This document shows, piece after piece, positions 1 to 18,601 of a DNA stretch of 20,039 nucleotides; the stretch's first letter is position 1, and every line of letters starts with the position of its first letter. The translations under genes and the position numbers were made by a program. Below the pieces are notes generated by a model. It made no database searches, had not been told where the DNA came from, and saw only the letters and a program-made list of their open reading frames with translations. The DNA is from an uncultured Victivallales bacterium (GTDB lineage: Bacteria; Verrucomicrobiota; Lentisphaeria; Oligosphaerales; CAZSBQ01). The stretch lies in contig CAZSBQ010000048.1 in NCBI GenBank assembly GCA_964604795.1, positions 1 to 20,039 of the forward strand, in the 5' to 3' direction.

Positions 1-55
1 GAAAACCACTGAGCACGCAAGTGCTCCCAGGGTTCGAATCCCTGCCTCTCCGCCA
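1..55 (+). tRNA. partial tRNA (3' half), class II, most consistent with tRNA-Ser (NGA anticodon); the window opens inside the anticodon loop
   Basis: Variable-arm helix GAGCAC-GCAA-GTGCTC (11-26); T-arm CAGGG-TTCGAAT-CCCTG (28-44); acceptor 3' strand CCTCTCC (45-51), discriminator G52, encoded CCA 53-55. Bases 1-7 (GAAAACC) resemble the 3' side of a Ser anticodon loop. A tyrosine integrase follows immediately, the classic tRNA-island arrangement. Confidence 0.75.
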
Positions 56-203
56 GTCTTTATTTGTTCCCGTTGAACGACTTGCGACTTCGCTAGGATG
101 GCTCTTTCTTTTCGCATTTTTTGCCTATAGTTGATGGTTGTGGTTTTGTTGTGTCTTTGTTGTGTTATATTTGCAGCAGTTCGAGACAACAAGGAGGCCA
201 GTA

Positions 204-1436
204 ATGAAGCCCGAAGCAAAAATCACGCAAACCACATCTTCGACGCGGGGGAAGAGATATACGGTCTTTGTTGTCACTTACTATGACGACAACGACAAGC
301 GCAGACGCAAGGTCTTCACAGACGAGGCCAAAGCGGCGCGATTCAAGAAGGATTGCGACCACGACCGGGCAATTCAAAATGAACGGCGGGCGACACTGCG
401 CAACCGCATCGGGGAAGATGCGATGAAACTGCCCACTTTGCAATTGCGGCAGGCAGCGGATGCCGTCACCATTCTGGAGGGGAAAATCTCCCTGTCGGAT
501 GCAGCTCGTTTTGCCCGGCAGGTAGTGGACCTGCAGGAACAGTACGACAGCGGCGACGACCACGCCAGCACTTTGGATGGGGTCGTTTCGTGGTACGAAA
601 ACGCTCTCAAACACGCACAGAAAGAAATGCAGACGGTCTCGCAGTACGTCCAGGTTTATCTGGCGGCAAGTGAGGGCGCACTCCGAGTGGCGTCCATATA
701 TGAACTGAACGTCAGGCTTAAGCGTTTCTGCGATGCATTCGGGGAGCGGCGCTTGGACGAGGTCGAGCGTACCGAAATCAGCGAGTGGCTTGATGCAATG
801 CGCACGAAGCAGGGTGAACCACTTTCTGTAAACAGCAAAAAACATTATCGATATGCTGTTGCCGGATTATTCGCACACGCGATTGAACATACCAATCTGG
901 TCTCAGAAAATCCCGCTGTGCGGCAGACGAAATCACGGCGTACACAGCACCTTGAAAAAGTGCGGTATAAAGTGGAAATTTTCACCCCGGATCAGGCGCG
1001 TGCGCTGATTACAGCGGCGCGCAAACATTTTCCTTCGATGGTGGCGCCCGTTGCCCTTGGTTTGTTTGCTGGACTTCGCACAAACGAGATTATGAGGTTG
1101 ACTTGGGAGGAGCATATCTCCCTTAACAAGGGCATTGTAATGATCACAGACAAGGTGGCAAAAACCGGTCAAATTCGTAATGTGGAGATAACGTCGACCC
1201 TGCATGAGTGGTTGGCTGCATGTCCGTCCCAGGCCGGCAAAGTGGCACCCGAAGGCGCAAAATGGACATATCGGCGGCGGAAGCTACTTGAGAAGGCCGG
1301 ACTTGAAGAATGGCCGCGGAATGGAATGCGGCACAGCTATGGGTCCTACCACCTTGCGCAGTTTGGGGACGCGAAGAACACGATATCCAACCTTGGACAT
1401 GGTTCGGACGTATTTTTAAACATTATCGTCAATTGA
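204..1436 (+). CDS. tyrosine recombinase / phage-type integrase, C-terminus frameshifted (continues in the -1 frame 1403..1531)
   Basis: ATG at 204 preceded by AAGGAGG (191-197); the 138 TTG start in the ORF track is less likely. Catalytic-domain motifs are present: GLRTNEI (Arg), MRHSYGSYHL (HxxR), NLGHGSDV. The frame ends GSDVFLNIIVN* at 1436, but the expected catalytic-Tyr segment FKHYRQLMDKEQAAAYW is encoded in the other frame (ORF 1310..1531). Restoring one T in the T5 run at 1413-1417 gives ...LGHGSDVFFKHYRQLMD..., a canonical integrase C-terminus. Confidence 0.85.
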   Translation: MKPEAKITQTTSSTRGKRYTVFVVTYYDDNDKRRRKVFTDEAKAARFKKDCDHDRAIQNERRATLRNRIGEDAMKLPTLQLRQAADAVTILEGKISLSDAARFARQVVDLQEQYDSGDDHASTLDGVVSWYENALKHAQKEMQTVSQYVQVYLAASEGALRVASIYELNVRLKRFCDAFGERRLDEVERTEISEWLDAMRTKQGEPLSVNSKKHYRYAVAGLFAHAIEHTNLVSENPAVRQTKSRRTQHLEKVRYKVEIFTPDQARALITAARKHFPSMVAPVALGLFAGLRTNEIMRLTWEEHISLNKGIVMITDKVAKTGQIRNVEITSTLHEWLAACPSQAGKVAPEGAKWTYRRRKLLEKAGLEEWPRNGMRHSYGSYHLAQFGDAKNTISNLGHGSDVFLNIIVN

Positions 1437-1664
1437 TGGACAAGGAGCAAGCAGCCGCGTACTGGGCGATCCTGCCATCCGATAGTGATGAAGCAGCAAG
1501 CCCAGAACCACAGAGTGTGAAGACCACGTAGTCGGCTGCTGATTTTTGCCTCCCCATGAATGCCCGATCGACGCCGGCGCTGGCAGTGGACCCCCCGAAC
1601 CGGTGATTGGATTTTCCCTGTTTCTCGCTATAGTCTTGCCGAAAAGGGACTCTTTTTGCATCCC

Positions 1665-1693
1665 TTGACAGCACGCTGGTCGGTCTGTATTCT
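1665..1693 (+). promoter_or_regulatory. candidate sigma70-type promoter (TTGACA-N17-TATTCT) upstream of the cargo ORF
   Basis: TTGACA at 1665-1670, 17-nt spacer, TATTCT at 1688-1693. It faces the 1855 ORF, ~160 nt upstream of the GGAG(1843-1846)-ATG(1855). Confidence 0.4.
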
Positions 1694-1854
1694 TGCAACA
1701 GGAAACGGTCTGCTGTAAGGGTATTCCGCTCCAAGTCTGAAAAACAGTCTCAGGAACCCCTCCGCATATTAGTGGTCGCGCACAATTTTAAGGACAGTCA
1801 GTCCAAAGACAGAACGCGGGCGGTCGTGAGCTGGTTGCCGGCGGAGCATAGGCA

Positions 1855-3618
1855 ATGAAAATCTGCATCCTGGGTCAATCGAGCGAAATAGCATTCAAGA
1901 AGAATGAAGCCAGCAAGAAAGACAACTCCCTGAAGCGGATCAACGGCTGCGAGCTGCTTCTTCCGCCTGTCATCGGCGTTCATTGCATTGAAGAGCTGTA
2001 CGCAGATACCGAGGTGCCCCTCGACCCTCTACCTGCTTCTCCCCCTCCACGGCAGTTCCCTCCCACCGGGATTATGACACCCGGAGACCCCCTATACTCC
2101 GCGAACGATGTCGCCGAATGGTGCGAGCGCGAGTTCGGTGATCCGGCTCCCTCACAGGACTCGCCCGAAGCAGCAACCGCATTCTGGAGGCGGTTCACGG
2201 AGGCGAGGTTGAGTGGCCATCACGCCGAGCGCGCCCGGATTCTGCAGGCATACCTGGAAAGCACCTCTTGGCATGGTTTCATCGGCGACTGGGACTGGCT
2301 CATAGTAGACTGTGCGGCCATCGTGCGGGACATCGACCTCTTTCTGCATGGTGCCGACCGTGACGAACTCGATGCCGACAGCATTGTGAATGTCATCGAA
2401 GGTGATGGACCGTTCGTCCTTCGAACACTGTACCAGTGGGCGGAAAAGATCGAGGACCGGATGCGCCGCGGGCAGTGTATTCTGCTCCTGAACGACCGGG
2501 AAACGGCCCGCCTGTCCGAGATTCTGGTTTCGCATCTCTACAGCTGCAAGGATTCTGCCTACGAACGCTCGTCCAACCTCCAAGACTACCTTGACCCGAA
2601 ACGGTATGTTCCAAGCGCAGATTCCAAGTCGTGTGCGGTTGAGACGGAACAAGCTGAGGAATATCCCGACCCGCCTCCGTCTCTCACGGATGAGAAGTCC
2701 TGGGGTTGCCGCATCCGCTGCATCAGGGAAGTTCCGGATGCATCACCTGCCAGCCACAAATCGCCGAAAACCGTTCCCTCGTTTCATAAGCCCGCGTTTG
2801 CCCTGGACGGGTTCGATCCGGATGCCGGCTGGTCCGACGACCCGGAAGTGGACCGGACGCTGGAAAGACGAACCCCGGTTGACCGCTTCTGCTCCAATTC
2901 AAACGGGTTGTCGGTCCTGGCTACGGATGCCCACGGGTATCCCGTCAGCTTCATGCTCGCCCGTGGCCAGGGCGCCCTGGTCGTCCTGCCGCGTCCACTG
3001 CTCGGGGACACTTTCATGAAGAAGCTGGACGCCGAAAGAAGAGTCTTTGGATTGCGGGAGCTGAACAGTATCCTGGCCAAGACAGGAGAGAAGGATAAGG
3101 AATCTCAGGGGACCACGGACAGAGGAATATCCAATAAGGAACAGGAGAAGGAGAGCCTTGAGCACTGGCGGTGGCTGGAGTTCGTTCTTTACGAAAGGGA
3201 TGGTGACGGGAGCCCGATACCGAGCAAAGTCATTGTCCGATACACAGGGGAGAAGGGCGGATGCCAGTATTTTAGTTTTCGCCGTACAAAGCTTGAAAAA
3301 GGCTTTATCAAGGACAACTCCGGAAAGGCGAACGACAACTGGGGTATGCTTCGTCAAGTTGCGCGGCAGAAGGATCATCGTTCGTTGTCCCCTCTACCCC
3401 GTGAAGGGGAGAGTGAGAGCGCTCGCCGAACGCGAGTAGGCTCTCTGAGGAAGGACCTTGCCGAGCTTCTCGCCCAAGGACCGGACGATTGCAAAGACTG
3501 GCCGAGGGTTGACTGGTCGGCAGGCAAGGCGAAAGCCATCAGCAAGGAGAGGGGGGCGGGCGTGTGGAAGTGCGCCTTCAAGGTCCGCATGGCGGAGGAC
3601 TCCAAACATGACGCATAG
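1855..3618 (+). CDS. hypothetical protein (587 aa), orphan cargo gene of the integrative element; no family recognised
   Basis: Long uninterrupted ORF. ATG at 1855 with GGAG 9 nt upstream. The first ~60 codons are AT-richer than the rest, so the true start could be internal (e.g. the Met in ...GIMTPGD). No Walker, HTH, nuclease or other motif that I can recognise by eye. Confidence 0.55.
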   Translation: MKICILGQSSEIAFKKNEASKKDNSLKRINGCELLLPPVIGVHCIEELYADTEVPLDPLPASPPPRQFPPTGIMTPGDPLYSANDVAEWCEREFGDPAPSQDSPEAATAFWRRFTEARLSGHHAERARILQAYLESTSWHGFIGDWDWLIVDCAAIVRDIDLFLHGADRDELDADSIVNVIEGDGPFVLRTLYQWAEKIEDRMRRGQCILLLNDRETARLSEILVSHLYSCKDSAYERSSNLQDYLDPKRYVPSADSKSCAVETEQAEEYPDPPPSLTDEKSWGCRIRCIREVPDASPASHKSPKTVPSFHKPAFALDGFDPDAGWSDDPEVDRTLERRTPVDRFCSNSNGLSVLATDAHGYPVSFMLARGQGALVVLPRPLLGDTFMKKLDAERRVFGLRELNSILAKTGEKDKESQGTTDRGISNKEQEKESLEHWRWLEFVLYERDGDGSPIPSKVIVRYTGEKGGCQYFSFRRTKLEKGFIKDNSGKANDNWGMLRQVARQKDHRSLSPLPREGESESARRTRVGSLRKDLAELLAQGPDDCKDWPRVDWSAGKAKAISKERGAGVWKCAFKVRMAEDSKHDA

Positions 3619-3685
3619 GCCTTGCTGAGGCCCGTTCAGCAGGCAGTCGGCGGCCGCGCGCAGTGCAGCAGAATCCGGTTCCGGT

Positions 3686-3970
3686 CACAGTGTCACTGTC
3701 ATAGGGGTCTGTGTATGCTCAAACCCCTGATTTTTTGATAAAATCCCTGCTTTTTAGAGGTGAGAGGGGGTGGGTGTGACACTGTGACAGTATGGGTATA
3801 TATATATGTATATTCTATATATTTGAGGCTATATAGTCGTAAAAACAGTGTCACAGAAACCTCGTGACAGTGAGTGACACTGCACCTCTTTTTCAACAAT
3901 AGTGTCACGCAGTGTCACGGCGGACTCAAACAGCGAATCAGCCTCAAAACAAGAACAGTGTCATAGGGGC
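3686..3970. repeat. iteron-like array of CAGTGTCAC / GTGACAG motifs (about 9 copies, both orientations) flanking an AT-rich core at 3796-3835
   Basis: Copies include CACAGTGTCACTGTCATAGGGG (3686-3707), GTGACACTGTGACAG (3777-3791), AACAGTGTCACAG (3844-3856), GTGACAGTGAGTGACACTG (3865-3883), AGTGTCACGCAGTGTCACGG (3901-3920) and CAGTGTCATAGGGGC (3956-3970). The AT-rich tract is TATATATATGTATATTCTATATATTTGAGGCTATATAG. Confidence 0.6.
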
Positions 3971-4735
3971 GAATCCTGACTGCGCGACGGCATTTTGCCC
4001 TCCTGCTGGCGGAGCACAAGCAAAATCTCATGGCTGATCCCGAAGACCTGCCTTAGCTCGTTTCGGCCCTGATGCCGAATTCGGCATCAACTGCATAGCA
4101 CGGATTGGAAACCCTACCTCAAAAAAAATCGCGGAAAAATGATCCCCGACCACAGATCGCGAGCGAAGCGAGTGAGCTGTGGGACCGATAGGTCAAGGGG
4201 ATTCATTTTTTCGAATCCGGCCTAAACTCAAGCCGAATTTTGGATGCATTAGGGCGTATGGGCTGATCTTCAGGTATTTCGATCTTGTGTCAAATCATAT
4301 ATAGCCCTCTCCACTGCAGGGCCTGCAGTTGCTATGCTGCTCTTTGGCGAAGTGTGATGAGCAGCGCCTGGAGATGCCAGAAATAGGCTTTTTCAAACTG
4401 TGTGTAGTAGCGCAGCAATGAAGCACAGCGGGCCTTCTTATGCCTTCGCTCTCCCGTTTTCAGAGGTCAGAAAGGGTCTCGTCTGTACTGGTCTGCACAA
4501 GGGAACTGAAACCCAACCTCAGATCGATCCCCAGCACCGCAATCTCATCGACCCCGGAGTCTGTCCTGCAAATGCTCTCCGCCGCCTTTGTCAGGAGTCC
4601 ACAGAGCTTATCAAAGGGCAGGTGGGTGTTGCTCTCTGGATGTCGCCAGTAGTTCTTACTTCTCCCCTGATACACCAGAAGAAAAACGCCGCATCGGGAG
4701 CGGTTATCGCGCATGTATTGGCCGCGCAGCTGATT

Positions 4736-5595
4736 TTAAGCCGTTCGATGAGTTGACATGTTGACAATTTGTGAGCTATTTTTAATTCGATGAGCACAGG
4801 TGCGTCCACGCGCGCGGAATGGAGACGAATGTCGGGACGCTTTCCGTCGGCATAACTCTTCCTCCTGGGCCACGCTGTAGATGCTGCAACTGCGCTGCCT
4901 CAGCCAGTAGGCGAAATCATTGCGCAGTTGGACTTCTCGTTTGATGGCCTGCAATATGGATGCCCGGCTGTCCTCTGCTTCCTCGAGTTCGTGCTTCAAG
5001 TCGAGGAGTCGGCCGACGGTCAGATCGTAGAGTTCGGCGTGATTTCCGGGCTGCTTCACCCCCTTGTCGGCGAACTCGCGAACGGCGGCGAAAATGCCGC
5101 ATCGGTCAAGCGCTCCGTGAAGCTCCCGTCCAAGTCTCTTTATTGTCATCTCGAAGCGTTTGGGACCGACAAGGCGAGCCTCGTCAACCGAGTCGAGGAA
5201 GAAGAATGCTCGCGCCGAACCCCATTTTCGCCATTCCTCGAACTCCTCATGCGTTCCGGCCTCCTCGAACGCACTCTCGAAGCAGTCGCCGACAAACTCC
5301 AGGCGCACAAAGAAGGCTGCCTCACCCGAGGCCTTAAGTTTACAGGCGCAGTGCTTGAGTTCAGATGTCTTCCCCGACCCCGCTTCGCCCAGAATGACGA
5401 CACGGGGCAGTACCAGAAGATCGCCCCATCCCCTGGAGTCCAGTACGCCATGATGCCGAGAGTGTCGTAGTCATCGGATTGGTGCGGGTCTGGCGACAGC
5501 GGGATGAACTGCCGGTTCAAATGCAGGAAGTCAGTAGACATGGGGTAGCGATACGCTCTCGGTTTTTCCGGGCAGAAAGAGCCTTGCCAGTTCAA
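4736..5595 (-). pseudogene. P-loop NTPase (STAND/AAA-like), disrupted: N-terminal piece in one frame (5437..5541/5595), Walker A/B piece in another (4736..5470), followed by an in-frame TAA
   Basis: The minus frame that is open from 5470 encodes VVILGEAGSGKTSEL (Walker A) and FFFLDSVDEA (Walker B), but has no ATG/GTG/TTG before the GTG at 5308. The upstream ORF (ATG 5541, MSTDFLHLNRQF...AYWTPGDG) runs into it and is out of frame at the C/G-run 5425-5436. After the TAA at 4736-4738, the same frame reopens at 4714..4460. Confidence 0.55.
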
Positions 5596-5770
5596 TGCCT
5601 ACAATATCGCACCGACTGCAACACGCAATCCATTGTTCCCCTGCAGTTTCTCGTCCATTCAGAGAAACGCTTTCTGACGAAGCATTCACAAATCTGACGG
5701 TGAAGCAGGCAGGACACACGCTTTTCTGACGGTATAGCGTCAGTTTTATACGTCTGTATGTCAATGGGTT

Positions 5771-5800
5771 ATGACTTTTTAGTGGTTCATTTGGTATATA
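5771..5800 (+). promoter_or_regulatory. candidate promoter for the alpA-like gene (ATGACT-N18-TATATA)
   Basis: -35-like ATGACT at 5771-5776 and -10 TATATA at 5795-5800, in the divergent gap between the NTPase relic and the HTH gene. Weak -35. Confidence 0.25.
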
Positions 5801-5879
5801 TTACCTGCATTCGACCCGGACTGCTGGGGATGGTCCGCAGTGGCCGACGGGTCGCCAAACAGACAAGGAGAAGATGAGA

Positions 5880-6134
5880 ATGAGTGACAATTCAAGCAGG
5901 ACGCGGGAAAGAGGCGCAGGAGGCGATTTGATGACGCCCGAGCAAGCGGCGAAATTTCTAGGGGTAAAAAAAAGCTCGCTTGCTGCGGATCGATGTCGGC
6001 GAAGCTGGGACATTCCCTATTTTAAATTAGGTAGTGCCGTCAAGTACGCCCGCCGAGATTTGGAGAATTATTTGCAGAAATGTCGAGTTGACCACGGCAA
6101 GGAGGAGTGCGGAATTCCAATAAGAGCAGAGTAG
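5880..6134 (+). CDS. alpA: AlpA/Xis-family helix-turn-helix DNA-binding protein (excisionase/regulator, HTH_17-like)
   Basis: LMTPEQAAKFLGVKKSSL...IPYFKLGSAVKYARRDLENYL is the typical AlpA/Xis/MerR-like HTH followed by the wing. Alternative starts: ATG 5874 (poor spacing to AAGGAG) and ATG 5929 (GGAGG 8 nt upstream; gives 68 aa). Confidence 0.65.
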   Translation: MSDNSSRTRERGAGGDLMTPEQAAKFLGVKKSSLAADRCRRSWDIPYFKLGSAVKYARRDLENYLQKCRVDHGKEECGIPIRAE

Positions 6135-6155
6135 AAGGACCCACACAAGGGGGGG

Positions 6156-6180
6156 GGCACCGGACTTCAAGCCCGGTGCC
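6156..6180 (+). terminator. stem-loop GGCACCGG-N9-CCGGTGCC after the alpA stop, preceded by a G9 homopolymer (6149-6157); weak intrinsic terminator or RNA structure
   Basis: Perfect 8-bp inverted repeat at 6156-6163 and 6173-6180. It is followed by CCTCCACCCTTTAG, which is not a strong U-tract. Confidence 0.3.
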
Positions 6181-6206
6181 GCCTCCACCCTTTAGAACGA
6201 ACATTA

Positions 6207-7199
6207 ATGGAGAAGAATAATAACTTGAAGTCGAACACCGAAAAATTTGATCTGATGATGACGCCGATGATGCGGCTGCGGGCGAAATTGAAAGAGTTGC
6301 CCCCGCCGGGCTACGGCCAGGGATGCCATCCGGGGCTCCTGGGGTGCGCGAACCTGGCCAGACGCGCAGGACTGGACCGGACTTCCGCATTTTGCAGGCT
6401 CAAGAATGCGATCAAGCCCGGCCCACGCGAGGTTCCGGATACGGAGATAAAAGATGCCATCAATCTCGCATACGACGGCAATCAAGAGAGTAGACCTCGC
6501 CCGGCAGCGGTCCGGAGAGCCGAAGAGTCGGGAGTTCCGAGCTTCGATAGCGATGCCGAGCGAAATCGCATAATTCAGGCAGGTGCCGGATGGGATGAAG
6601 CCACTTGGATGGCTGCCTCCCCGACACCAATTCCCGAAGCCCCCGCCGAGCAGACGCAACTGGTGCTTCGCGAGCTGTTCAGCGTCAACGAGTTCGTTTT
6701 CGTGGGCGAGCGGTGGGGGACGTCGGACAGCGTCTTGAGAGTCGAACAGTGGGCTGGCATCCTGGCTGAATTTGCAGGAACCCTGAACCCGCCACACGTG
6801 ATCCCGAATCCGCTGACGGGAGACTGGGCTGCGAAGAGCTCAGGAGGTGGCAGTAAACGCTGCGACGAAGCCGTGGCCAAGTATCGAATTGCGGTCGCCG
6901 AATTCGACGGTCTCTCCCGAGAGGAGCAGTTGGCTTTTTGGGCGGGATTTGGTCGCCCGCTTGTGGCGCTGGTTGACTCCGGCGGAAAATCCGTTCACGC
7001 CTGGCTAAAAGTAGACTGCGCCGATGCCCAAGATTGGGGCGAGCAGGTGGGCAAAAAGCTTTACGGGGACCGATTAATCCCCCTTGGCGTCGATCCCGCA
7101 TGCCGGAATCCAAGCAGACTCTCCCGCCTACCGGGCATCACGCGAGACAATGGAAATATTCAGAACTTACTTTATCTGAAGAGTATGGAGAATCGATAA
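6207..7199 (+). CDS. primase-polymerase (archaeo-eukaryotic primase, PrimPol-like) replication protein
   Basis: AEP-like motifs: IAVAEFDG (acidic motif I), VDSGGKSVHAWLKV (motif II, sGxGxH), RLPGITRDNGN (motif III). Immediately followed by the DUF3987-like gene with overlapping TAAATG. Confidence 0.5.
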   Translation: MEKNNNLKSNTEKFDLMMTPMMRLRAKLKELPPPGYGQGCHPGLLGCANLARRAGLDRTSAFCRLKNAIKPGPREVPDTEIKDAINLAYDGNQESRPRPAAVRRAEESGVPSFDSDAERNRIIQAGAGWDEATWMAASPTPIPEAPAEQTQLVLRELFSVNEFVFVGERWGTSDSVLRVEQWAGILAEFAGTLNPPHVIPNPLTGDWAAKSSGGGSKRCDEAVAKYRIAVAEFDGLSREEQLAFWAGFGRPLVALVDSGGKSVHAWLKVDCADAQDWGEQVGKKLYGDRLIPLGVDPACRNPSRLSRLPGITRDNGNIQNLLYLKSMENR

Positions 7200-8495
7200 A
7201 TGCATAACCGAACATCTAGCCCAGATCCCGAGCGCGAATTGGAGCATATCATCGCAAATATGCCAGAGCGCAATCAGCCTATCCCAGATAGAATCCAAAG
7301 AATCATAGGCGACAGAGGGTTCTTACGGTCCTATCTTGACTTGCTCGGAGGAAGAAACGAAACTTCCTCGCTTTTTCACCTGGCCACCGCTCTAACCGTC
7401 CTCGGCGGCGGCCTGGCACGCAAAGTCTACGTCCGGCACGGCGAGCGTCGGGTTTACCCCAATTGTTTCACTTTAGTCGTAGGCAACAGCGGGATCTCGC
7501 GCAAATCCTCAGCGTTATCACCGGGGAAGCGGGTTTTTAGCAACTCCGGAACAGGTGATACAATGCCGGATAATTTCAGCGAAGAGGCGCTCGCTGAAAT
7601 TTTGAAGGAAGCTCCAGTCCTGGGAATCATCAGCGAGTTCAAAACCCTTGTAATGAATGCCGGAAAAAACTATGCGGGCGGCCTAATCTCGAGGCTCACC
7701 GACCTGTTCGACATGCCCGCGGAACTTTCTTTCGCCTTCAAAAAAAATGCGAAAAGGAAAGGAGAGGGCTGCAAAGTCGTCGTCCCGGATCCCACTCTGA
7801 GCCTAATCGCGGCGACCACTGAAGATTATTTCGCAGTCGACGACGCGGACGTTGCCGGTGGATTCGTGGGACGTTTTCTCGTGTTCGCGCACCAAGAGGA
7901 GACGCCCGTCATCCCGTGGCCGGCACCGATTCCGAAGGAAGCGTTTGTGCACCTGGGCGCAATGCTGCGCGAGCGTGCGGAAAACGGTTGCGGCGAGCTG
8001 GAACTGACCGCCGAGGCGAAAGATGCCTTCAGTGACATCTACCGGCGCTTCCGCAAAGAGGCCAGCGAGGCTCCCGATCGAAGTGCCGCGATGGACAGCT
8101 TCAGGTCCCGGGCTGGACTTTTCGTACTGAAGCTATCCCTAATTTTTGCAGTGAGCGAAAACCCGCACGCCAAGGTTATTGAAAAAACACACATTACGCG
8201 AGCAGAGCTGCTAGTCAAACAGTGCACTGAGGGACATGCCCGGTTGATCAGCCGCATATGCACCTCGAAATGGGAAAAAGACCGAAAAAAGGCTCAGGAT
8301 TTCATCGCCGCCCGCAGCGAAACCAGCATGCGAGACATTTATCGCCATCTCGGGGTTGATGTCCAAACCGCGGGTCGCATCGTCGACACGCTGGAGGCCA
8401 GCGGTTTGGTGCATTCTCGAATGGAGAAGGCCGCGAACGGCAAAGAAGTCGTTCGCATTGTTAATGGCCCCGATCCAGAAGAATCGGCAGCCTAA
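7200..8495 (+). CDS. DUF3987-like protein with degenerate P-loop (helicase-like partner of PrimPol in integrative-element replication modules)
   Basis: YPNCFTLVVGNSGISRKSSAL resembles the degenerate Walker-A region of DUF3987/primase-C-terminal proteins. The ATG at 7200 overlaps the PrimPol stop (TAA 7197-7199), indicating coupling, with GGAG 9 nt upstream. Confidence 0.4.
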   Translation: MHNRTSSPDPERELEHIIANMPERNQPIPDRIQRIIGDRGFLRSYLDLLGGRNETSSLFHLATALTVLGGGLARKVYVRHGERRVYPNCFTLVVGNSGISRKSSALSPGKRVFSNSGTGDTMPDNFSEEALAEILKEAPVLGIISEFKTLVMNAGKNYAGGLISRLTDLFDMPAELSFAFKKNAKRKGEGCKVVVPDPTLSLIAATTEDYFAVDDADVAGGFVGRFLVFAHQEETPVIPWPAPIPKEAFVHLGAMLRERAENGCGELELTAEAKDAFSDIYRRFRKEASEAPDRSAAMDSFRSRAGLFVLKLSLIFAVSENPHAKVIEKTHITRAELLVKQCTEGHARLISRICTSKWEKDRKKAQDFIAARSETSMRDIYRHLGVDVQTAGRIVDTLEASGLVHSRMEKAANGKEVVRIVNGPDPEESAA

Positions 8496-8505
8496 AATCA
8501 CACCC

Positions 8506-8533
8506 GGCGGGGAGGCCATCGTGCCTCTCCGCC
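8506..8533 (+). terminator. 11-bp stem hairpin GGCGGGGAGGC-CATCGT-GCCTCTCCGCC just after the 7200-8495 gene; possible terminator/RNA structure
   Basis: The inverted repeat has one G-U wobble. It is followed by TAAACGCGGAATTTCTATAAATTT, which is AT-rich but not a clean U-run. Confidence 0.3.
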
Positions 8534-8578
8534 TAAACGCGGAATTTCTATAAATTTATGAAAATACGAGGTTTACCT

Positions 8579-9088
8579 ATGTCGTCACGCGAAGATACCG
8601 TTCGCAAACATGTTTCATCCGCATTGGACGAGAGCAGCCGCGCTAACTTTGAAGCGGCGCTCAAAAGTCATAGCCTGACTTTTTACCAGAAGGGCCGGAG
8701 TCCCGCCGTCAATTTGAAAACCAACTCTGGGGGGCAACGCTTCAGGCTCCAGCGCCTGGGCCTGCTCGACAGATGGAACGCGGCGCTGGCCGCCTGGGGA
8801 GAAGATGCCAATTATCCCAGTCGGGGCACCGTGAGGACCAGGGGAAAAGGCGTGGACGAAATCGCCGCGCTCTGGCACGAATTCAGCAACAACAGCTCCA
8901 AGCTGTCCCCGAACGAGCGCTTGTCCGTGCGAGATTTCCTGGAAGAACTGTCTTACGATGATGTCTGCAAGGCGTTGGAAATTACAGCTTCGAGACTTTC
9001 AGGAAAACCAGACGAAGACCGATTTAGGTACTTCTGCGGAATTTGCTGGAATAAGATAAAGGAGCTCAAAAGCAGTAGGGCGGACTGA
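8579..9088 (+). CDS. hypothetical protein (approx 170 aa)
   Basis: ORF 8558..9088. The ATG at 8579 has GAGG 9 nt upstream, while 8558 has no RBS. No recognisable motif. Confidence 0.45.
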   Translation: MSSREDTVRKHVSSALDESSRANFEAALKSHSLTFYQKGRSPAVNLKTNSGGQRFRLQRLGLLDRWNAALAAWGEDANYPSRGTVRTRGKGVDEIAALWHEFSNNSSKLSPNERLSVRDFLEELSYDDVCKALEITASRLSGKPDEDRFRYFCGICWNKIKELKSSRAD

Positions 9089-9098
9089 CCTAAAGGGT

Positions 9099-9122
9099 GC
9101 GGGGAGTTCTCAAGCTCCCCGC
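9099..9122 (+). terminator. hairpin GCGGGGAG-N8-CTCCCCGC immediately after the 9088 stop
   Basis: 8-bp perfect stem, extendable with a bulge to GTGC...GCAC. There is no U-tract, so it is a weak terminator or a structural element. Confidence 0.3.
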
Positions 9123-9641
9123 GCACTTCCGCGGTCGAAAACCTGGGCGTTTATGGTGCACATCACGAATGGGTCCTCCCTTCGGGAGGAGCGATCTCGG
9201 TTGTGCAGCATGCACAAAACATCTGCCAGCTTTCTTTTGCCGGCGTGCTCCCGCTAGACCTGAAGCGAAAATGCGGAGGACTTCAGAAAACTTCGGGTGG
9301 CGGATAAAATCGTTTCAGCGGGGGGGCAGTTTGCAGCGGTGGCAAGGCATCCGGAACAAGAGACGATCCGCAGAACGGCATGGGTGCAGTACCTGCAGTA
9401 AACTAACTGTACATCAACTAGATACGGCCAGTATTGAAAGAGATTGATGGCGGATGTTTTTGGGGCTCCTGAGTTGGGCCGATCAACGGCTTTTTATGCG
9501 TACTCGAAAGCACCGGCAATGACGTTCGGGCGGCTGTCCGCCATCACAGTCTAAAGATGGCGCCTGGTAAACGCCGAAGGCCTGCAATCTGTTCATAGTA
9601 TTGTTCCACCCTGCCGTCCCCGACTGGTCATGAACTGATAC

Positions 9642-11571
9642 CTATTCCAGGACTGACGGCGCCAGACAGACGCGGAAGCCCAGGCTGTTGCCCGTGTTCT
9701 CCGGGCTGCTCCTGTTGCGGTAGGCCGACCGCACGATTCCGGACGAACCGACCCAGCAGCCGCCGCGACTGACGCGGTCCGAGGCCGCCTTAGTGTTCAC
9801 CGGGTTCGTCCCGGGCGACCGCCCGTAGAAATCGTCATCGTACCAATCATAGCACCACTCCCAGACGTTGCCCGACATGTCGTGCAAGCCGAGTTCGTTG
9901 GCTTTCAATTGCCCGACTTCGTGCGTTTCTCCCCCGCTGTTGTCTCGGTACCACGCCACCTCATCCGCGTTGTTCGAGCCGGAATACGTGTACCCCCGGC
10001 TCCTGTTACCGCCGCGCGCGGCGTACTCCCACTCCGCCTCCGTCGGCAGACGGTACACGTACCCGTCCGGCAGACGTCCGGCACGGCGCTCCCGCCCCGC
10101 CAACGCCTTGCAGAATTTGTCCGCATTGTTCCAGGATACGCCTTCCGCCGGAAAGCGGGGATGAGTGATACGTCTGACCTCCCGTCCGATGCCCAGAAAA
10201 CCGGACTTCACAACGTCCTCGTCTTGAAAATGACTTGGATTTCTGCCCGTCAGCTTCTCGTACTCTCCCTGCGTCACCGGATACTTACCCATCCAGAAGG
10301 GATGCGTTAGCGTCACCTCGTGGACCGGCTTTTCGTCTTTGTATGCGTCGGCCTGATCGCTGCCCATCTGGAAGGTCCCCGGTTCCACTCGGACGAACTC
10401 CATGCCCAGCTCGTTGCCGGCGGTCGGGTCGTCTGCAGGTGAAGCGGCATCGGATGCTGTTGGTGTGTCGGCTCGAATCGGTTCAGGTCGGGCCGGTTGC
10501 GGCTTATGCTGCACGGATGATGCTTCCGATGCAGTCGATGGTTCGCCCGGCAAACGTTCGCGCATGGCTGCGGCATCCGCAAAACGGCCGGAGGCATCCT
10601 CCTCCAACGCCGTAAGGATAAGCTCATCCCAGGCGAGATCGAGGCTTTTTACGTAGTACGATGGTGGCCGGGGACCGACCTGCTTGCCGGTGAGCAGCCG
10701 ATACATCATCAGGCCGACGCTGTAGACATCGCTTGCGGGCGTGGCGTCCTCGCCGCGCTTTTGCTCCGGGGACATGTACTCAAAGGTTCCCAGCATGGAC
10801 TTTGTGCTGGCTCCCGCACCCTCGGGAAGCTCAGTCTGCATCCCGCCGATGCTCATCGACATCTTCACGGACAGCTCGGCCTGACTGCGCACCCACTCCT
10901 CGCCGATCATGCGGACCAGTCCAAAGTCGGCGATCTTGAAGGTGGCGTAGCCGTCGCCGTCGGTGCAAATCAGGATGTTGGCGGGTTTTAGATCGCGGTG
11001 AATCACGCCATGTTGGTGCGCGTGAGCCAGGCCGTCCAATACCTGAGCGAACACCGCAGCCGCCTCATCTGAATCGAGCCGCCCACCCTGCGCCTCGGCA
11101 TACTCCCCCAACGTCCTGACCTCTGCCCTCTGATCTCCGCCCTCTGCCCTCCGACCTCCGACTTCTGCCCTCCGATCTCCGGCATCCAGCTCGTGGGGAC
11201 ACTCGCCCTCCAGGTTCAAGGACAAAGCCACTCGCCAGTTCCATTCGCAGCCAGTACCGCCCGTCGGTCTCGCCGAAGTCATCGACCTGAACGATATTGG
11301 GATGCTCGATATTCGCCATGGCGCGCGCCTCGCGCCGGAACCGCTCGAGCGCATCCGCCCGGTTTGCGAAGTCCGCAGGTAAAAGCTTGAGAGCGTACCT
11401 TCGAAGCAGGGTCGTATGCTCAACCTCATACACTTCCCCCATCCCGCCGCGCCCCAGCAGCCGAACGACTCGATACTGCCCAAGCACGTTACCGGGCTTC
11501 AAAGACGAACCTCCCGGGTCTTTGCCCCCAGGCGGCATCGTCTCATCGAAGTTGATGGTGTTGTCGTTCAT
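9642..11571 (-). CDS. Ser/Thr protein kinase fused to a C-terminal FGE-sulfatase (formylglycine-generating-enzyme-like) domain; frameshifted between kinase N-lobe and C-lobe
   Basis: N-lobe (ORF 11065..11637): [18 protein letters not shown] (Gly loop), YALKLL (beta3 Lys). C-lobe (ORF 9642..11483): [20 protein letters not shown]-sulfatase-like region: [16 protein letters not shown]...[16 protein letters not shown]...NVWEWC...RGGCW. The two frames swap between 11211 and 11238. ATG at 11571 (MNDNTINF); the GTG 11637 extension lies inside the upstream repeat. Confidence 0.8.
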
Positions 11572-11574
11572 GTC

Positions 11575-12195
11575 GTTCGCTTGTTTCTTGGGGCGCTGCC
11601 CCAAACCCCGCCAGGGGAAACGTGGTTCCCCCTGCACCCCCCCAAGGTAGTCAGGACCGGGGGCAATGGGCCGGGAACTTGAACGGTTTTGATAAACCGC
11701 TCAACTTCCCGACCCGGTTCCGCATTTTTTTTTTGGGCCTTCCAATCGTTATACCCTAAAATCGTCATACCTTCTCCGGCTCTTGTCTTCTCTCCGCGCC
11801 TCTGCGCCTCCGCGCGAGAATCATGCCTTTCCAATCGTCATACCATCTCTCTGCCTTTTGTGCTGGGACTGGGGGACCATGGGTGTGTGGGGTTGTGAGT
11901 ATGTGGGTGTCACTGGCAACTGGCAACTCGCGTTTCGCGCCTCACGTTTTATGAACAGGCAGGGATGCCTATTCTACTTTGCCCTTTGACTTTGCCCTAC
12001 CAATCGTCATACCTCTCTCTTTGCCTTTGCCCCATGATTCTGCCGCCAATGATTCTGCCAAATCTGCTCTTGCCTTACTTGCGTAAAACGTGTGTGGGTG
12101 GGTCTGTGGGTGTCAGGTTTCGTTTCACGCATCACGTTTTATGAACAGGCAGGGATGCCTATTCTACTTTGCCCTTGCCTTCCGCTTGTCATACT
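11575..12195 (+). repeat. modular intergenic repeat, copy A
   Basis: hp1 TTGGGGCGCTGCCCCAA 11588-11604; hp2 11611-11634; 41-bp palindrome CCGGGAACTTGAACGGTTTTGATAAACCGCTCAACTTCCCG 11671-11711, then T10 11725-11734; AATCGTyATACC at 11744, 11760, 11833, 12002; CGCG-rich unit 11790-11845; GT-rich 11881-11910; ACTGGCAACTGGCAACT 11912-11928; hairpin AACAGGCAGGGATGCCTATT 11954-11973 and again 12134-12153; ATGATTCTGCC x2 12034-12059. Confidence 0.8.
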
Positions 12196-13895
12196 TACCG
12201 CACGATGGTTTGGTTGTCGCTGGAGCGCTTGGCGGCTTCGGTGGCGGGTTCGACGGTGGTTTTTAGGTTGCGTTCCTGGCGGTCGCCGGTGTCCTTGTAG
12301 AGCGAGCGCATTTCTTCGAGCAGCTCGCGGTACTTGTCTTCTTCGCCCTGCTTCATGCGTGCGAGCGCTTCGGCGGCTGCGGGACTGTCGGCGGCCGCCG
12401 CGGCGAGGATTTGCTCGGGGGTTTTGCCGTCCTGCGATTTGAGTCGCATGGCGTCGAGGATGGATTTGCGCGCGTCGGGGTCCTGGATGTCGGCGAGCAT
12501 CTCCAGTTCGGACATGCCGGAGCGGCGCTTGGCATCCAATTCGGCCATCTCGGCCTTGTGCTCCTCCTTCTGCTTGCGCAGGCCCATGGCCCATTCGGTC
12601 TCCTCGCGTTCGCGCTGGTCGGCCCACTCCTTCTCCTTTTTCTCCTGCTCGAACTGGATATCGCGGACCTGGGTTGCGGTTTCCGTATCCTTTACCTGCT
12701 TGTCGCGCTCGTAGCCGTCGCGCTTGACGGATACGCCGAGGTCGTGCTCGAGTTTTTCGGATTCGACCTGGAAGGTATGGCGCAGGTCGTCGAGTTCGTC
12801 CCGCTTCTCCCAGGCGCGGTGCAGCTCGGTGCGTTCGCGGTCGCGCTTGTCCTCGGCGATGCCGTACTCGTGGGCGATGGCGGCCTGGTAGTCGGCCAGT
12901 TCCTGCTCCGAGTGGAACTGGTCCATTTGGTCCTTGGAAAGCAGCGAGCGCATCTGCTGATCGTACTCGATCTCGCGCCGCTTCTGCTCGACTTGGCCCA
13001 TCTTCTCGGCGAGGTCTTCGTACTCTTCGCCGGTGAATTCGGCGGAGGAGACGCGGACCAGCTCGATGCCCTGACGGACAAGCGCCTCGCGCAGGTAGCG
13101 GTCGAGGTCGTCCTGCAGGCGCAGGCGCCGCTCGGGATCTCGGACGAGGTCTTCGACGGTGCTCTTTACGCACATGGCGTCCACGGCGTGCCGGATATCC
13201 GATTCGAAGGGCGAGGTCATGTCTTGGTAGGATATCTGCTCGGCGTCCTTGAAGCGGTTTTCGAGGAAGGCGATGGCGCTCTTCTTGTCGTTGCCGAAGC
13301 GAACGATGACCTCGCCGTAGAATTCGATGGGCAGGCCCTCGGAGGTGCGCAGGCTCTCCAGGCGTACTGGGAGGATGACGTCGCCGGCGTCGACGAGCAC
13401 GACGGAGCGCGGCGGCGGGTTGCCGAAGCGGTTGATGGCGCGCGCCAGGCTGTCGGGGTTGTGCCGTCCCGCTTCCAGGATGCCGCGGAACTGTCCGCCG
13501 TCCATGAGCAAGGCGACGGTGCCGGCTTGGACGAGCAGGTCGTTTTTGAGCAGGCGCTTGATGTCGCCGATCTCAAAGCGCTGGGCGAAGACGCCGGGCT
13601 GCTTGCTCCAGACGCCGCCCGCAATGTCCGCGCGGCTCTCGGGATGCAGCGGCTGGTTGCAGTGGGGGCAGAAGTGGGAGTCGTTGCCGATCCATTTGCG
13701 GCAGGAGGGGCATTTCCACCAGCCGCCGGGGGCGGGACGGCCGCATTTGTTGCAGAATCGGGCAGCCTTGCGGACCTTGTTGTCGCAGACGGGCCAGTCA
13801 GGGTCCTGCCGCGCCTGCTCCAACGCTTTGCCGCTCAACGCGCGACCGCTGTTCGGATCGATCAAAGCCTGACATGTGTCACTGAAAATACCCAT
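12195..13895 (-). CDS. zinc-ribbon + SPFH/band-7 domain protein with long charged coiled-coil C-terminal region
   Basis: N-terminal CxxC...CxxC...CxxC (CNKCG...CPSCR...CPHCN). Central region VVLVDAGDVILPVRLESLRTSEGLPIEFYGEVIVRF...DIRHAVDAMCVKSTVEDLVRD...LREALVRQGIELVRV fits the SPFH fold pattern. E/K/R-rich C-terminus. ATG 13895 (MGIFSD) with GAGGTG RBS; the TTG 13964 extension (MGQRPKKQ...) lies in the repeat. Confidence 0.5.
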   Translation of the reverse strand: MGIFSDTCQALIDPNSGRALSGKALEQARQDPDWPVCDNKVRKAARFCNKCGRPAPGGWWKCPSCRKWIGNDSHFCPHCNQPLHPESRADIAGGVWSKQPGVFAQRFEIGDIKRLLKNDLLVQAGTVALLMDGGQFRGILEAGRHNPDSLARAINRFGNPPPRSVVLVDAGDVILPVRLESLRTSEGLPIEFYGEVIVRFGNDKKSAIAFLENRFKDAEQISYQDMTSPFESDIRHAVDAMCVKSTVEDLVRDPERRLRLQDDLDRYLREALVRQGIELVRVSSAEFTGEEYEDLAEKMGQVEQKRREIEYDQQMRSLLSKDQMDQFHSEQELADYQAAIAHEYGIAEDKRDRERTELHRAWEKRDELDDLRHTFQVESEKLEHDLGVSVKRDGYERDKQVKDTETATQVRDIQFEQEKKEKEWADQREREETEWAMGLRKQKEEHKAEMAELDAKRRSGMSELEMLADIQDPDARKSILDAMRLKSQDGKTPEQILAAAAADSPAAAEALARMKQGEEDKYRELLEEMRSLYKDTGDRQERNLKTTVEPATEAAKRSSDNQTIVR

Positions 13896-13924
13896 CGCTG
13901 CACCTCGTCTTTCGCTTTGCTTGG

Positions 13925-14430
13925 TGGTTTGTTTGCTTGCTTGTTTCTTGGGGCGCTGCCCCAACCCCCGCCAGGGGAAATGATTTCCCCTGGACCCCTC
14001 GGGCTGTTTTACCGCGAATCTCGTAAATCCGCGCGGCAGGGGACAGAGGGCATGGGTCGGGAACGTGAGCGGTTTTTGGCAAACCGTTCAAGTTCCCGCC
14101 CCGGCTCCAGTTTTTGATTTTCCTGTCGCTACTTCCGGACCATGGGGGGTGTGGGTTTGTGTGTGTGGGTGTGTGGGTGTGTGGGGTTGTGTTACTGATT
14201 ACTGGTCACTGGTCACTCCCGCTTTACGCTTGACGAACAGGCAGGGATGCCTGTTTTACGTTATCCTCTGCCTTTGCCCCATGATTTTGCTGTCAATGAT
14301 TTTGCCAACCTGCCCTTGCCCTTCTAATCGTCATACCCCAATAATCGTCATACCTTCTCTCTGCCTTTGCCTTCTCCCTCACGCCTCACGCCTCACGCCT
14401 CACTCATCACTCATCACCTGTCTTGCAGAG
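13925..14430 (+). repeat. modular intergenic repeat, copy B
   Basis: hp1 13948-13964; hp2 CCAGGGGAAATGATTTCCCCTGG 13971-13993 (11-bp perfect stem); palindrome CGGGAACGTGAGCGGTTTTTGGCAAACCGTTCAAGTTCCCG 14058-14098 plus T-runs 14111-14122; GT microsatellite 14147-14192; ACTGATTACTGGTCACTGGTCACT 14193-14216; terminator-like hairpin 14236-14258; ATGATTTTGC x2 14281-14304; AATCGTCATACC x2 14326-14354; CCTCACG x4 then CACTCAT x2 14369-14418. Confidence 0.8.
14236..14258 (+). terminator. terminator-like hairpin AACAGGCA-GGGA-TGCCTGTT + TTTT (module of the repeat family; perfect copy)
   Basis: 8-bp perfect stem, GGGA loop, U4 tract, in the + orientation only (antisense to all neighbouring genes). 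Equivalent copies lie at 20016-20037 (perfect) and 11954-11973, 12134-12153, 18209-18228 (one stem mismatch, TGCCTATT). Confidence 0.35.
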
Positions 14431-14502
14431 CAGTATACTCGATATTCCCGGGATTTTCAACTCCTCTATTTATCTCTGTTTACGGGAGCGGTGCTGCGTT
14501 GG

Positions 14503-15363
14503 TCAGGTTTCTCGCTTGGCCAGGGTTTCGCAGGCGCAGTAGTTGTAGGTACCCAGCACGGCGACGCTGACGGCCAGGGCTGCGGGCAGCCACGGCCCGG
14601 TGACGGTGTAGAGTCCGAGCAGGGCCAGCGCGGCCATTCCGATGGCCGTGTACCCCAGCAGCAGGAGAGCCCCGGCTGCATTGGTGCGTTGGCGACGCGC
14701 ATGGAAACTCAGGGGAGCGGTGATCCAGGGCAGAGCGGCAATCCCGGCGATGCCCAGCAGCCAGACCAGAATGCGACTGCCGCCGCCGTGGTTCTCGTCC
14801 TCCCGCGCCGCGGCGACGGTGGAACTGCCGGTCACGGCTTCGTTGAGCAGCCGCCGCTTCTGCCCCGGCGCGAAGGCGCGCAGTTGAACGGTGGCAAGCG
14901 CGTCGGCTTCGGTGGATGTGATGTCCCGCACGCTGCCCGCAATCACCACATCCAGGTCGACGCGACGCCCGGCGTTGAGTATCTGCTCCAGGGTGGTTGC
15001 GCCTTCGAGCTGGCTGGTGACGTCCTTCAGGAAGCGCTTGATCACCGACCGGTCGTCCACCTCGAAGCGGGGATGCCCGGCGACGGCCCGGCGCAGAGTC
15101 GTCGTCACCTCGTCGGTGGGATCGGAGAGCAGATGAGCCACGCCCACGCGCAGGGGCGTTTCATCCTCGGCAGGCGCCAGTTTGGCCGCCATGCGCTCGA
15201 CAAACTCCCGGCACAGCTGCTCGACCGCATGCCGCTCCTGCTCGGTCAGCTCCGGCGGACGCGGACGGCTGAAGACAAACACCTGCCAGCCGAGAAACGC
15301 CAGAACGACCAGGGCCAGTCCCTTCAGAGAAACCATAAACCACAAAAACCGCATTACGCTCAT
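14503..15363 (-). CDS. hypothetical membrane protein (N-terminal TM helix, 3-4 C-terminal TM helices)
   Basis: ATG 15363. Hydrophobic N-terminus FLWFMVSLKGLALVVLAFLGWQVFVF and C-terminus ILVWLLGIAGIAALPWI...ALLLLGYTAIGMAALALLGLYTV...ALAVSVAVLGTY. No family recognised. Confidence 0.5.
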   Translation of the reverse strand: MSVMRFLWFMVSLKGLALVVLAFLGWQVFVFSRPRPPELTEQERHAVEQLCREFVERMAAKLAPAEDETPLRVGVAHLLSDPTDEVTTTLRRAVAGHPRFEVDDRSVIKRFLKDVTSQLEGATTLEQILNAGRRVDLDVVIAGSVRDITSTEADALATVQLRAFAPGQKRRLLNEAVTGSSTVAAAREDENHGGGSRILVWLLGIAGIAALPWITAPLSFHARRQRTNAAGALLLLGYTAIGMAALALLGLYTVTGPWLPAALAVSVAVLGTYNYCACETLAKRET

Positions 15364-15384
15364 GAGAACACCTTTGATTGAAAG

Positions 15385-15445
15385 TACGACGAGTAGGAGG
15401 TATGACGATTGATTGGTATGACGATTAGAGGGGGTGACAATTGTT
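15385..15445 (-). repeat. minimal copy of the AATCGTCATACC direct-repeat module (two units 16-17 bp apart), here inverted relative to the other copies
   Basis: GGTATGACGATT at 15399-15410 and 15415-15426, then GGTGACAATTG 15433-15443 (compare CCAATTGTCAACC at 18292). It lies 35-60 nt upstream of the 15363 ATG on the gene-sense strand. Confidence 0.6.
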
Positions 15446-15448
15446 TGT

Positions 15449-16269: not shown

Positions 16270-16284
16270 TATCAATCTCCAACC

Positions 16285-16536
16285 TGCCTTCCAATCGTCA
16301 CATCCTACTCTCGGCCTTTTGGACCGTGGGACTGGGGGACTGATGGACCGGGGTGCCCACCCTCCCTGCCTGCCTTGTCATTCTGCCAAACCGCATTTGC
16401 CCTAGCAATCGTCACACCCAAAAAATCGTCATACCCGCTCTCTGCCCTTGCCCTTGCCCTTGCCTTTGCCTTCCAATCGTCAACCCCATAATCGTCAACC
16501 CAACGCCTTTCTGCCCTTGCCCTTTGATTGTCATCC
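16285..16536 (+). repeat. modular intergenic repeat, copy E (AATCGTCAyACC-rich variant)
   Basis: CAATCGTCACATCC 16291; GGGACTGGGGGAC 16328-16340 (as in copies A and C); AATCGTCACACC 16405 and AATCGTCATACC 16422; (TGCCCTTGCC)n 16442-16470; AATCGTCAACC x2 16473-16499; TTGATTGTCATCCC 16523-16536. Confidence 0.7.
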
Positions 16537-17667: not shown

Positions 17668-17789
17668 TCACCCAAGGTCATGGTTGCGTCCGTCAATGCT
17701 CGAGTCGTCCGTGCCGGCGTAAACGTATCGCGGGTTATCTCTTTTTACAAACGCACAAACACAAACACAAACGAAAACCCGAATCGAAC

Positions 17790-18565: not shown

Positions 18566-18601
18566 AAATGTCAACCCAACTCCCCGCAGGCGCCGAGGCT
18601 C

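Follow-up and report, generated by a model that had tools for sequence, protein, structure and literature searches.

The gene, its relatives, and its promoter

The 20,039-bp contig CAZSBQ010000048.1 from an uncultured Victivallales bacterium, analysed over its whole length and hereafter called the window, begins with a small island that carries a tyrosine integrase next to the 3' end of a tRNA gene. The first gene after this integrase is a 587-codon open reading frame (ORF) at positions 1855-3618 on the plus strand, whose product (P0001) is referred to below as X. A sequence-only reading of the contig, made without database searches, had described it as an orphan cargo gene with its own promoter, in a slot that once held, or still holds, a defence function. 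Judging by its sequence and that of its relatives, X represents a new protein family that occupies a known type of location and has an unusual, constant module at its N terminus. It is best explained as the first member of a very rare family whose genes invariably come directly behind the integrase in small islands integrated at tRNA genes.

Several features confirm that positions 1855-3618 are a genuine gene, as the sequence-only reading had assumed. The stop-free run of 588 codons compares with a mean of 180 and a maximum of 277 codons for the longest run in 300 shuffles of the 9.6-kb island part, and the GC content at the three codon positions (0.61/0.46/0.67) is coding-like and matches that of the other island genes. 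The ATG is confirmed by the shared start Met of three homologues, and a Shine-Dalgarno sequence (GGAG, positions 1843-1846) lies 8 nt upstream of it. A colinear homologue, the 566-aa protein P0003 (33-39% identity), is intact and is encoded in an island that has no NACHT gene. Conservation of the gene spans a large evolutionary distance.

The label “orphan” proved apt. Neither X nor its homologue matches anything in Pfam, NCBIfam, PHROGs, PADLOC, or PDB (the latter searched by sequence and by profile), the sole Pfam line in these searches being DUF2017 at an E value of 0.16. Membership in a housekeeping family, the outcome that the sequence-only reading had named as speaking against its interpretation, was not found. 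A tblastn search of X against plasmid and phage records gave no match, and word-indexed homologue searches returned X itself and nothing else. Only two relatives came out of an exhaustive HMMER scan, which covered 1.84 billion cluster representatives: P0003, encoded in locus L002 (E value of 4e-47, 39% identity over residues 1-249), and the 68-aa P0004, encoded in loci L003 and L004 (E value of 7e-15, 67% identity over residues 1-57). Each of these is a singleton cluster from Logan assemblies. A search with the family alignment found nothing in GTDB genomes, JGI metagenomes, or IMG/VR. Finally, a degenerate DNA pattern for the conserved peptide NGCELLLPP picked out 24 metagenome loci, one of which (L025) is real, and gave one chance match in IMG/VR.

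Comparison with P0003 divides X into a conserved N-terminal half and a C-terminal part of ~200 aa that is, as judged by alignment, without detectable homology. In Smith-Waterman alignments scored against shuffled sequences, z is 30 for residues 1-60 and 55 for residues 61-250, then 3.8 for residues 251-381 (a score reached by 1 of 300 shuffles) and -0.7 for residues 382-587. Conservation delimits an N-terminal mini-domain (codons 1-57, positions 1855-2025) of the form MKxxhhGxSSxI ... NGCELLLPPvI ... ExLYxDTxV, which is 68-70% identical to the window sequence in L003/L004, 55% in L002, and 36% in L025. It is followed by a proline-rich linker (codons 58-80, positions 2026-2094, 39% Pro), at the position of which P0003 and L025 have Pro- or Gln-rich stretches. 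The acidic conserved domain (codons 81-250, positions 2095-2604), defined by the Smith-Waterman scores and the alignment with P0003, contains the motifs SPEAAxxFWRR, RARILxxYLE, WHGxxGDWDxxxVDC, and SExxxxHL and is predicted to be alpha/beta, its secondary structure coming from low-confidence AlphaFold2 models only. The weakly conserved middle region (codons 251-381, positions 2605-2997) ends in a shared strand motif (GYPVSFMLARGQGALVVLP), the BLASTP alignment reaching residue 381, and the remainder (codons 382-587 plus the stop codon, positions 2998-3618) is a variable basic region in which homology to P0003 is not detectable. As a whole the protein is acidic (pI 5.6), its tail being basic (pI 9.5 for residues 441-587), and it has no signal peptide and no membrane segment.

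The constraint on the mini-domain is strong and acts on the peptide, since L025 retains NGCELLLPP unchanged despite differences in 6 of the 9 codons. Codons 27-54 show an excess of same-codon identity among the window, L002, and L003 (11/18 versus 6.5 expected and 16/24 versus 9.6 expected). An RNA or DNA element underlying these codons was considered and rejected, as there is no stable fold (z = 0.1) and L025 changes the codons while keeping the peptide; the excess is better explained by recent exchange. Two family assignments were likewise discarded. An AbrB/MazE/SpoVT fold for the mini-domain received an hhalign probability of 0.13% over 5 aligned columns, against a set of AbrB-like sequences, and membership in the Xis, HTH_17, or MerR-like families finds no Pfam or PHROG match in X, P0003, or the 68-aa P0004.

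Upstream of X, at positions 1665-1693 of the plus strand, lies the sigma-70-type promoter TTGACA-N17-TATTCT noted by the sequence-only reading, which agrees with the consensus at 10 of 12 positions. A promoter scan found 6 sites of such quality versus 3.3 expected, which is weak evidence taken alone. The pattern TTGAC[AT]-N17-TAnnnT occurs once, both strands counted, in each of the window, L002 (positions 1083-1111), and L003 (positions 622-650), every time 85-161 nt 5' of the homologous start. Given the low background of this pattern (0.007 per 200 nt, measured over 440 kb), its single, consistently placed match in each of these loci makes the promoter a conserved feature, which recurs upstream of homologues in two independent loci; the pattern was not found in L025. 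The long 5' leader is also present as described, with 161 nt (positions 1694-1854) that include the Shine-Dalgarno sequence, and its length varies among the loci (L002, 106 nt; L003, 85 nt). A structured leader or riboswitch was rejected, with no significant fold (z = 0.32) and no Rfam family.

Linkage to tyrosine integrases

At all four loci, the reading frame that comes first behind a tyrosine integrase, and on its strand, encodes X or the N-terminal part of X, and this linkage spans two integrase subfamilies. The sequence-only reading had asked whether homologues sit in the same integrase-proximal slot of related islands and had counted a lack of island association against itself; homologues were found directly after the integrase, in an island setting, in 4/4 cases, with tRNA remnants of an attachment (att) site seen in three of the four. 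In L002, P0003 starts 190 nt after the integrase and is convergent with a P4-family primase. In L003/L004, P0004 starts 177 nt after the integrase, and L004 begins with a tRNA 3' end ~145 nt ahead of the integrase gene. L025, the only one of the 24 pattern-hit loci that has an integrase, encodes MSVAIFGSESDI...NGCELLLPPVV from ~96 nt after it; this integrase belongs to the other subfamily, with an Arm-DNA-bind_3 N terminus and 26% identity in the catalytic domain only, and a reversed tRNA fragment lies upstream of it.

The contents of the slot vary among these loci. Positions 736-948 of L003 (identical to positions 1553-1765 of L004) carry the mini-domain as a stand-alone 68-aa ORF that ends in TAA, and 3 nt (AGG) later comes the ATG of an unrelated ORF of >461 aa, which has no match in Pfam, NCBIfam, PHROGs, or PADLOC. 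Such an arrangement would fit either an exchange of cargo or a pair of genes coupled in translation. Identity between the L002 and L004 integrases is 70%, whereas their slots are unlike, with a full-length X in L002 and the 68-aa mini-ORF only in L003/L004. The mini-ORF of L003/L004 is 70% identical to that of the window and 44% identical to that of L002, the opposite of the integrase relationships. The replication modules differ as well: the window has alpA, a primase, and a DUF3987 gene, and in L002 the primase is of the P4 family and is encoded on the opposite strand. Six more distant relatives of the integrase (29-35% identity), all in Verrucomicrobiota metagenome-assembled genomes (MAGs), are without X. 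Because the slots differ behind similar integrases, the mini-ORF and integrase trees disagree, the replication modules differ, and those six relatives lack X, the evidence favours X as cargo rather than a core component of the islands.

In a separate observation, positions 8017-9456 (minus strand) of locus L005, from a Spartobacteria MAG with an integrase relative at 35% identity, hold an integrase-proximal GHKL-type ATPase (HATPase_c_3) and a 410-aa protein without a Pfam match, on the opposite strand, which is different cargo in the same kind of position.

The main rival to a cargo function is that X, or at least its mini-domain, has a function tied to the integrase or to the life cycle of the island and could serve in the control of excision or integration or in the sensing of an inducing signal. 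The mini-domain would then contact the integrase or att DNA, and the variable C terminus would sense a lineage-specific trigger, as in the divergent master repressors of satellites. Such coupling would account for the constant first position on the same strand, which extends to L025 with its unrelated integrase subfamily, as well as for the invariance of NGCELLLPP there, the survival of the mini-domain as a 68-aa ORF after replacement of the body, and the similar divergence of the two genes between the window and L002 (38% identity for the integrase and 33-39% for X). However, no DNA-binding or Xis/HTH domain is detected, the AbrB/MazE-like idea is rejected by hhalign, and an AlpA-type excisionase or regulator is already present in the island. 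Further, integrase relatives at 29-35% identity do without X, the integrase and mini-domain phylogenies conflict, and the 68-aa ORF of L003 may be a mere leftover of a cargo swap. On balance we find this explanation doubtful.

Stl-type master repressors of the Staphylococcus aureus pathogenicity islands (SaPIs) have an N-terminal helix-turn-helix (HTH) and are transcribed divergently from the island lytic operon. X can be likened to them in that it lies next to the integrase, diverges strongly from one island to another, and combines a conserved part with a variable, putatively partner-sensing, part. In contrast to Stl, X has no detectable HTH, is twice as long, and is co-oriented with the integrase.

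The L003 arrangement also allows for a more general scheme, in which the promoter and the ~55-codon mini-ORF would form a portable constant “leader” module, with exchangeable cargo bodies behind it, and act as a platform on which tyrosine-recombinase islands capture and express cargo. In the window and in L002 the X body continues the mini-ORF as a fusion, and in L003 the TAA followed after 3 nt by the ATG of an unrelated ORF suggests translational coupling. The mini-ORF stands behind two unrelated integrase subfamilies, and its phylogeny is in conflict with that of the integrases. The promoter/attI end of integrons offers a loose analogy to such a constant leader. As an alternative to it, the mini-domain could be a new integrase-interacting unit. 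We consider these ideas quite improbable.

The HyoA-type pseudogene and the remainder of the contig

The decayed STAND-like NTPase that the sequence-only reading had noticed beside X is real and is identified here as a NACHT anti-phage pseudogene of the HyoA type (positions ~4517-5541, minus strand). The minus strand matches NCBIfam NF058534.1 (NACHT domain-containing antiphage protein HyoA; HyoA is characterised here by this NCBIfam description alone) with an E value of 8.8e-62 over profile positions 32-144; when the frame is read through the stops, the E value is 1.1e-84 and a second stretch corresponds to profile positions 1239-1428 of 1430. The score of 285 bits is far under the 1200-bit cut-off because ~1,090 residues have been deleted internally, so that the C-terminal end now directly follows the P-loop-containing N-terminal part. 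These remnants correspond in alignment to the two ends of a full-length 1451-aa protein from a Rhizobium plasmid. A Walker A motif (GEAGSGKT) is still recognisable, and Pfam gives weak nSTAND/NACHT matches only. The lesions include at least one frameshift (near positions 5420-5440) and an in-frame stop (positions 4736-4738). A 118-aa ORF on the plus strand (positions 4400-4756), antisense to the pseudogene, is probably spurious.

Since this neighbour is a HyoA-type pseudogene, the slot held an anti-phage gene, and the earlier proposal that it once contained a defence function is borne out by the wrecked NACHT gene beside X. The pseudogene lies in the same cargo slot, convergent with X, and shows that defence genes enter it. 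X itself is unrelated: it has no P-loop and no NCBIfam or Pfam match, neither strand of its gene is matched by a hidden Markov model, and membership in the HyoA/NACHT-STAND proteins was rejected. A partnership of X with HyoA was also rejected, as L002 has X without HyoA and the neighbours of the HyoA-like gene of Rhizobium are unrelated to X.

A full-length HyoA gene running leftward from position 5541 would have spanned the X region, and the island shows signs of decay (the integrase frameshift described below and the pseudogene); both would fit a non-functional X, be it a shadow of the NACHT gene on the other strand, an ORF that arose by chance, or a relic decaying in a dead island. However, none of the three antisense frames of positions 1855-3618 has any similarity to HyoA, and the antisense origin was rejected on this ground. 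The coding-like GC pattern in the plus frame, an ORF twice as long as the longest shuffle run, the intact colinear homologue in an island without a NACHT gene, and the conservation of the start codon, Shine-Dalgarno sequence, and promoter all argue in the same direction. The comparative data make a non-functional X unlikely, and we hold this explanation to be by far the least probable of those considered here.

The left end of the island is marked by the 3' part of a tRNA-Ser(NGA)-like gene (positions 1-55, plus strand), truncated by the contig start, which represents the attL side. This segment terminates with the T-arm, acceptor stem, discriminator G, and CCA (GGTTCGAATCCCTGCCTCTCCGCCA). ARAGORN called no tRNA in positions 1-55, as expected for a truncated gene, and Rfam gave a weak match to a tRNA-like 3' end and nothing stronger. 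The discriminator G, the long variable arm, and a “GAAAA” remnant of the anticodon loop point to tRNA-Ser. The contig start and end are those of the window; a Logan assembly of run SRR15425353 is identical to it over positions 28-10050.

The tyrosine integrase gene (Pfam Phage_integrase; plus strand) would occupy positions 204-1531, with an as-assembled stop at position 1436. A run of 5 T at positions 1413-1417 shifts its frame just upstream of the catalytic Tyr; with one T added, ...GHGSDVFFKHYRQL... is restored, the protein keeps the R, HxxR, H, and Y residues, and it aligns over its full length with the integrases of L002 and L004 (36-40% identity). At the frameshift, the Logan assembly made from that run has the same sequence as the window, and the integrase of the window is either a dead enzyme or the product of a homopolymer assembly error.

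To the right of the pseudogene, a candidate excisionase or regulator, the AlpA-like HTH_17 protein (positions 5874-6134, plus strand; Pfam HTH_17 E value of 1e-8, with PHROG excisionase/regulator families), marks the right border of the cargo slot. It is followed by a 330-aa primase-like protein (positions 6207-7199, plus strand; PHROG DNA primase families with E values of 4.9e-18 and 3.2e-24) and a DUF3987 helicase-like protein with a winged-helix tail (positions 7200-8495, plus strand; Pfam DUF3987 and MarR_2). The sole candidate for attR is a 12-nt copy of the tRNA 3' end (TGCCTCTCCGCC) at positions 8522-8533, directly after the DUF3987 gene. Island-like GC content persists beyond this repeat, to ~9500, so that the right end of the island may lie near 8530 or near 9500, and past ~9.6 kb the GC content goes up and the genes are chromosomal in appearance. 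The product of an ORF at positions 8558-9088 has an HNH-endonuclease-like C terminus (PHROG E value of 2.5e-7). None of the island proteins has relatives in IMG/VR.

Between X and the pseudogene lies a repeat-rich, AT-rich stretch (positions 3680-3970) in which (A)CAGTGTCAC repeats, nine or more of them and in either orientation, lie on both sides of an AT-rich tract (positions 3795-3845) and AGTGTCAC is present in six copies versus 0.38 expected. It resembles iterons with an origin, or an operator region. The cluster has no counterpart beside the L002 homologue and is therefore probably not tied to X.

The description of the island as satellite-like holds in part. An integrase beside an att site (the tRNA-Ser 3' end at positions 1-55 and the integrase from position 204) and an AlpA-type regulator with a primase/helicase module (positions 5874-6134 and 6207-8495) are present, and this gene set, including the DUF3987 helicase part, fits a satellite. 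However, no packaging, cos/pac, or capsid-redirecting genes were recognised in the island, there is no evidence for a helper phage, and the integrase appears to be frameshifted.

The rest of the contig has features of its own. Positions 9642-11483 (minus strand) encode a Ser/Thr protein kinase fused to an FGE-sulfatase domain. This fusion and the integrase relatives, all of them from Verrucomicrobiota MAGs, would point to a host of the PVC group, probably in the Verrucomicrobiota. The region from position 11500 to 20039 contains families of multi-copy intergenic repeats, probably lineage-specific dispersed repeats, among them a 255-nt unit at positions 11732-11986 and 17987-18241 (96% identical), a 51-nt unit present in five copies, one of which is at the contig end (positions 19989-20039), and GT-rich and “AATCGTCATACC” modules between the genes. 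In the same region, positions 15449-16294 (minus strand) encode a PDDEXK_3 nuclease-like protein, and positions 18602-19864 (minus strand) encode an ATPase with AAA_14 and DUF4143 domains that matches the PADLOC candidate system PDC-S01 (E value of 1.3e-90).

Possible functions of the family

[quoted passage not shown] As in the P4-like and PICI hotspots, the window has a small integrase-bearing island with a variable slot on the integrase side and accessory genes with promoters of their own, and here a HyoA remnant as well. In contrast to these elements, the hallmark genes (psu, delta, sid, cos, and capsid-redirecting genes) are not present, and X has no relative among known defence systems. 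PICMIs share with the island of the window a minimal set of int, alpA, primase (with a DUF3987 part), and a few accessory genes, and they are integrated at fis, with the hotspot between prim and fis (PMC10803314). The window differs in using a tRNA-Ser site, in having the slot between int and alpA, and in having no known helper phage. The orphan PICMI accessory gene up2, cloned with its native promoter, protects against phages (PMC10803314) and, compared by its description only, is the best precedent for a possible role of X.

Taken together, these data suggest that X is most likely a single-protein anti-phage or anti-mobile-element accessory factor, to which we assign a probability of roughly 40%. 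In such a role, X would be transcribed from its own conserved sigma-70-type promoter and hence be expressed while the island is integrated, whether or not the genes for integrase and replication are active. Its activity would reside in the conserved N-terminal half, with specificity supplied by the variable C-terminal part. The slot turns over, the X body having given way to an unrelated ORF in one related island and a HyoA gene having been wrecked here. The earlier interpretation thus stands with respect to the variable integrase-proximal slot, the island-linked homologues, the absence of X from housekeeping families, and the past presence of a defence gene, whereas the possibility that X itself is a defence protein is not borne out by any PADLOC, NCBIfam, Pfam, or PHROG match or by a usable structure model.

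Several results weigh against a defence role. X has no similarity to known defence proteins or effector domains, and no catalytic or sensor motif can be assigned to it. The PADLOC comparison that the sequence-only reading had proposed (PADLOC-DB v2.0.0) gave zero families at an E value of ≤1 for X, and the same result was obtained for P0003 and for the replacement ORF of L003. AlphaFold2 models of X have a predicted local distance difference test (pLDDT) score of 36 for X alone and 35 with a 3-sequence alignment and are unusable; the best Foldseek match of the pLDDT-35 model in PDB has an E value of 0.46 and was counted as no information. The adjacency to a defence pseudogene is circumstantial, the L002 homologue having no HyoA neighbour. 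The island is decayed in look, and X could be a still-intact relic. That the mini-domain survives on its own, as a 68-aa ORF, would be explained at least as well by an integrase-tied function. In addition, the sample consists of four loci, three of them on short contigs, which makes the statistics of linkage and turnover thin, and the loci were found via the gene itself, so that the frequency of other cargo in the slot is not readable from them.

The cargo position, the separate promoter, and the absence of a defence family would also suit cargo of another kind, such as an addiction or stabilisation factor, an anti-defence or helper-exploitation protein, or an enzyme of benefit to the host. 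The conserved alpha/beta domain contains Gly-x-Ser-Ser, Asp-rich, and Ser-Glu...His motifs and might have hydrolase or transferase activity; it is predicted to alternate strands and helices, with conserved polar residues at the strand ends, and the Foldseek matches, all of them insignificant, are alpha/beta hydrolases only. However, X has no match, even a weak one, to an enzyme family in Pfam or NCBIfam, the motif reading is based on two full-length sequences and low-confidence models, and metabolic enzymes do not usually have a C-terminal third that lacks homology between relatives. The lipase/esterase matches in Foldseek have E values of ≥0.46 and probabilities of ≤0.15, on the pLDDT-35 model. 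An SGNH/GDSL or other alpha/beta hydrolase was rejected as a family assignment: there is no Pfam match, and the first Ser of the G-x-S-S motif is Glu in L025. A non-defence cargo function is, in our estimate, unlikely.

X is an intact protein without relatives in annotated families, located beside an anti-phage NACHT gene that is now dead, in a lineage (probably Verrucomicrobiota) of which few members have been sampled, and integrase-proximal slots of satellite-like islands are a productive source of new immune genes. The family is extremely rare, but its motifs, its promoter, and its four loci define it well enough to make the functions suggested here directly testable. As a defence factor, X would add a single-gene system of a new type, in which a conserved core is combined with an exchangeable C-terminal part. 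If the mini-domain is instead tied to the integrase, it would represent an unrecognised accessory component, or a cargo-exchange mechanism, of tyrosine-recombinase islands.

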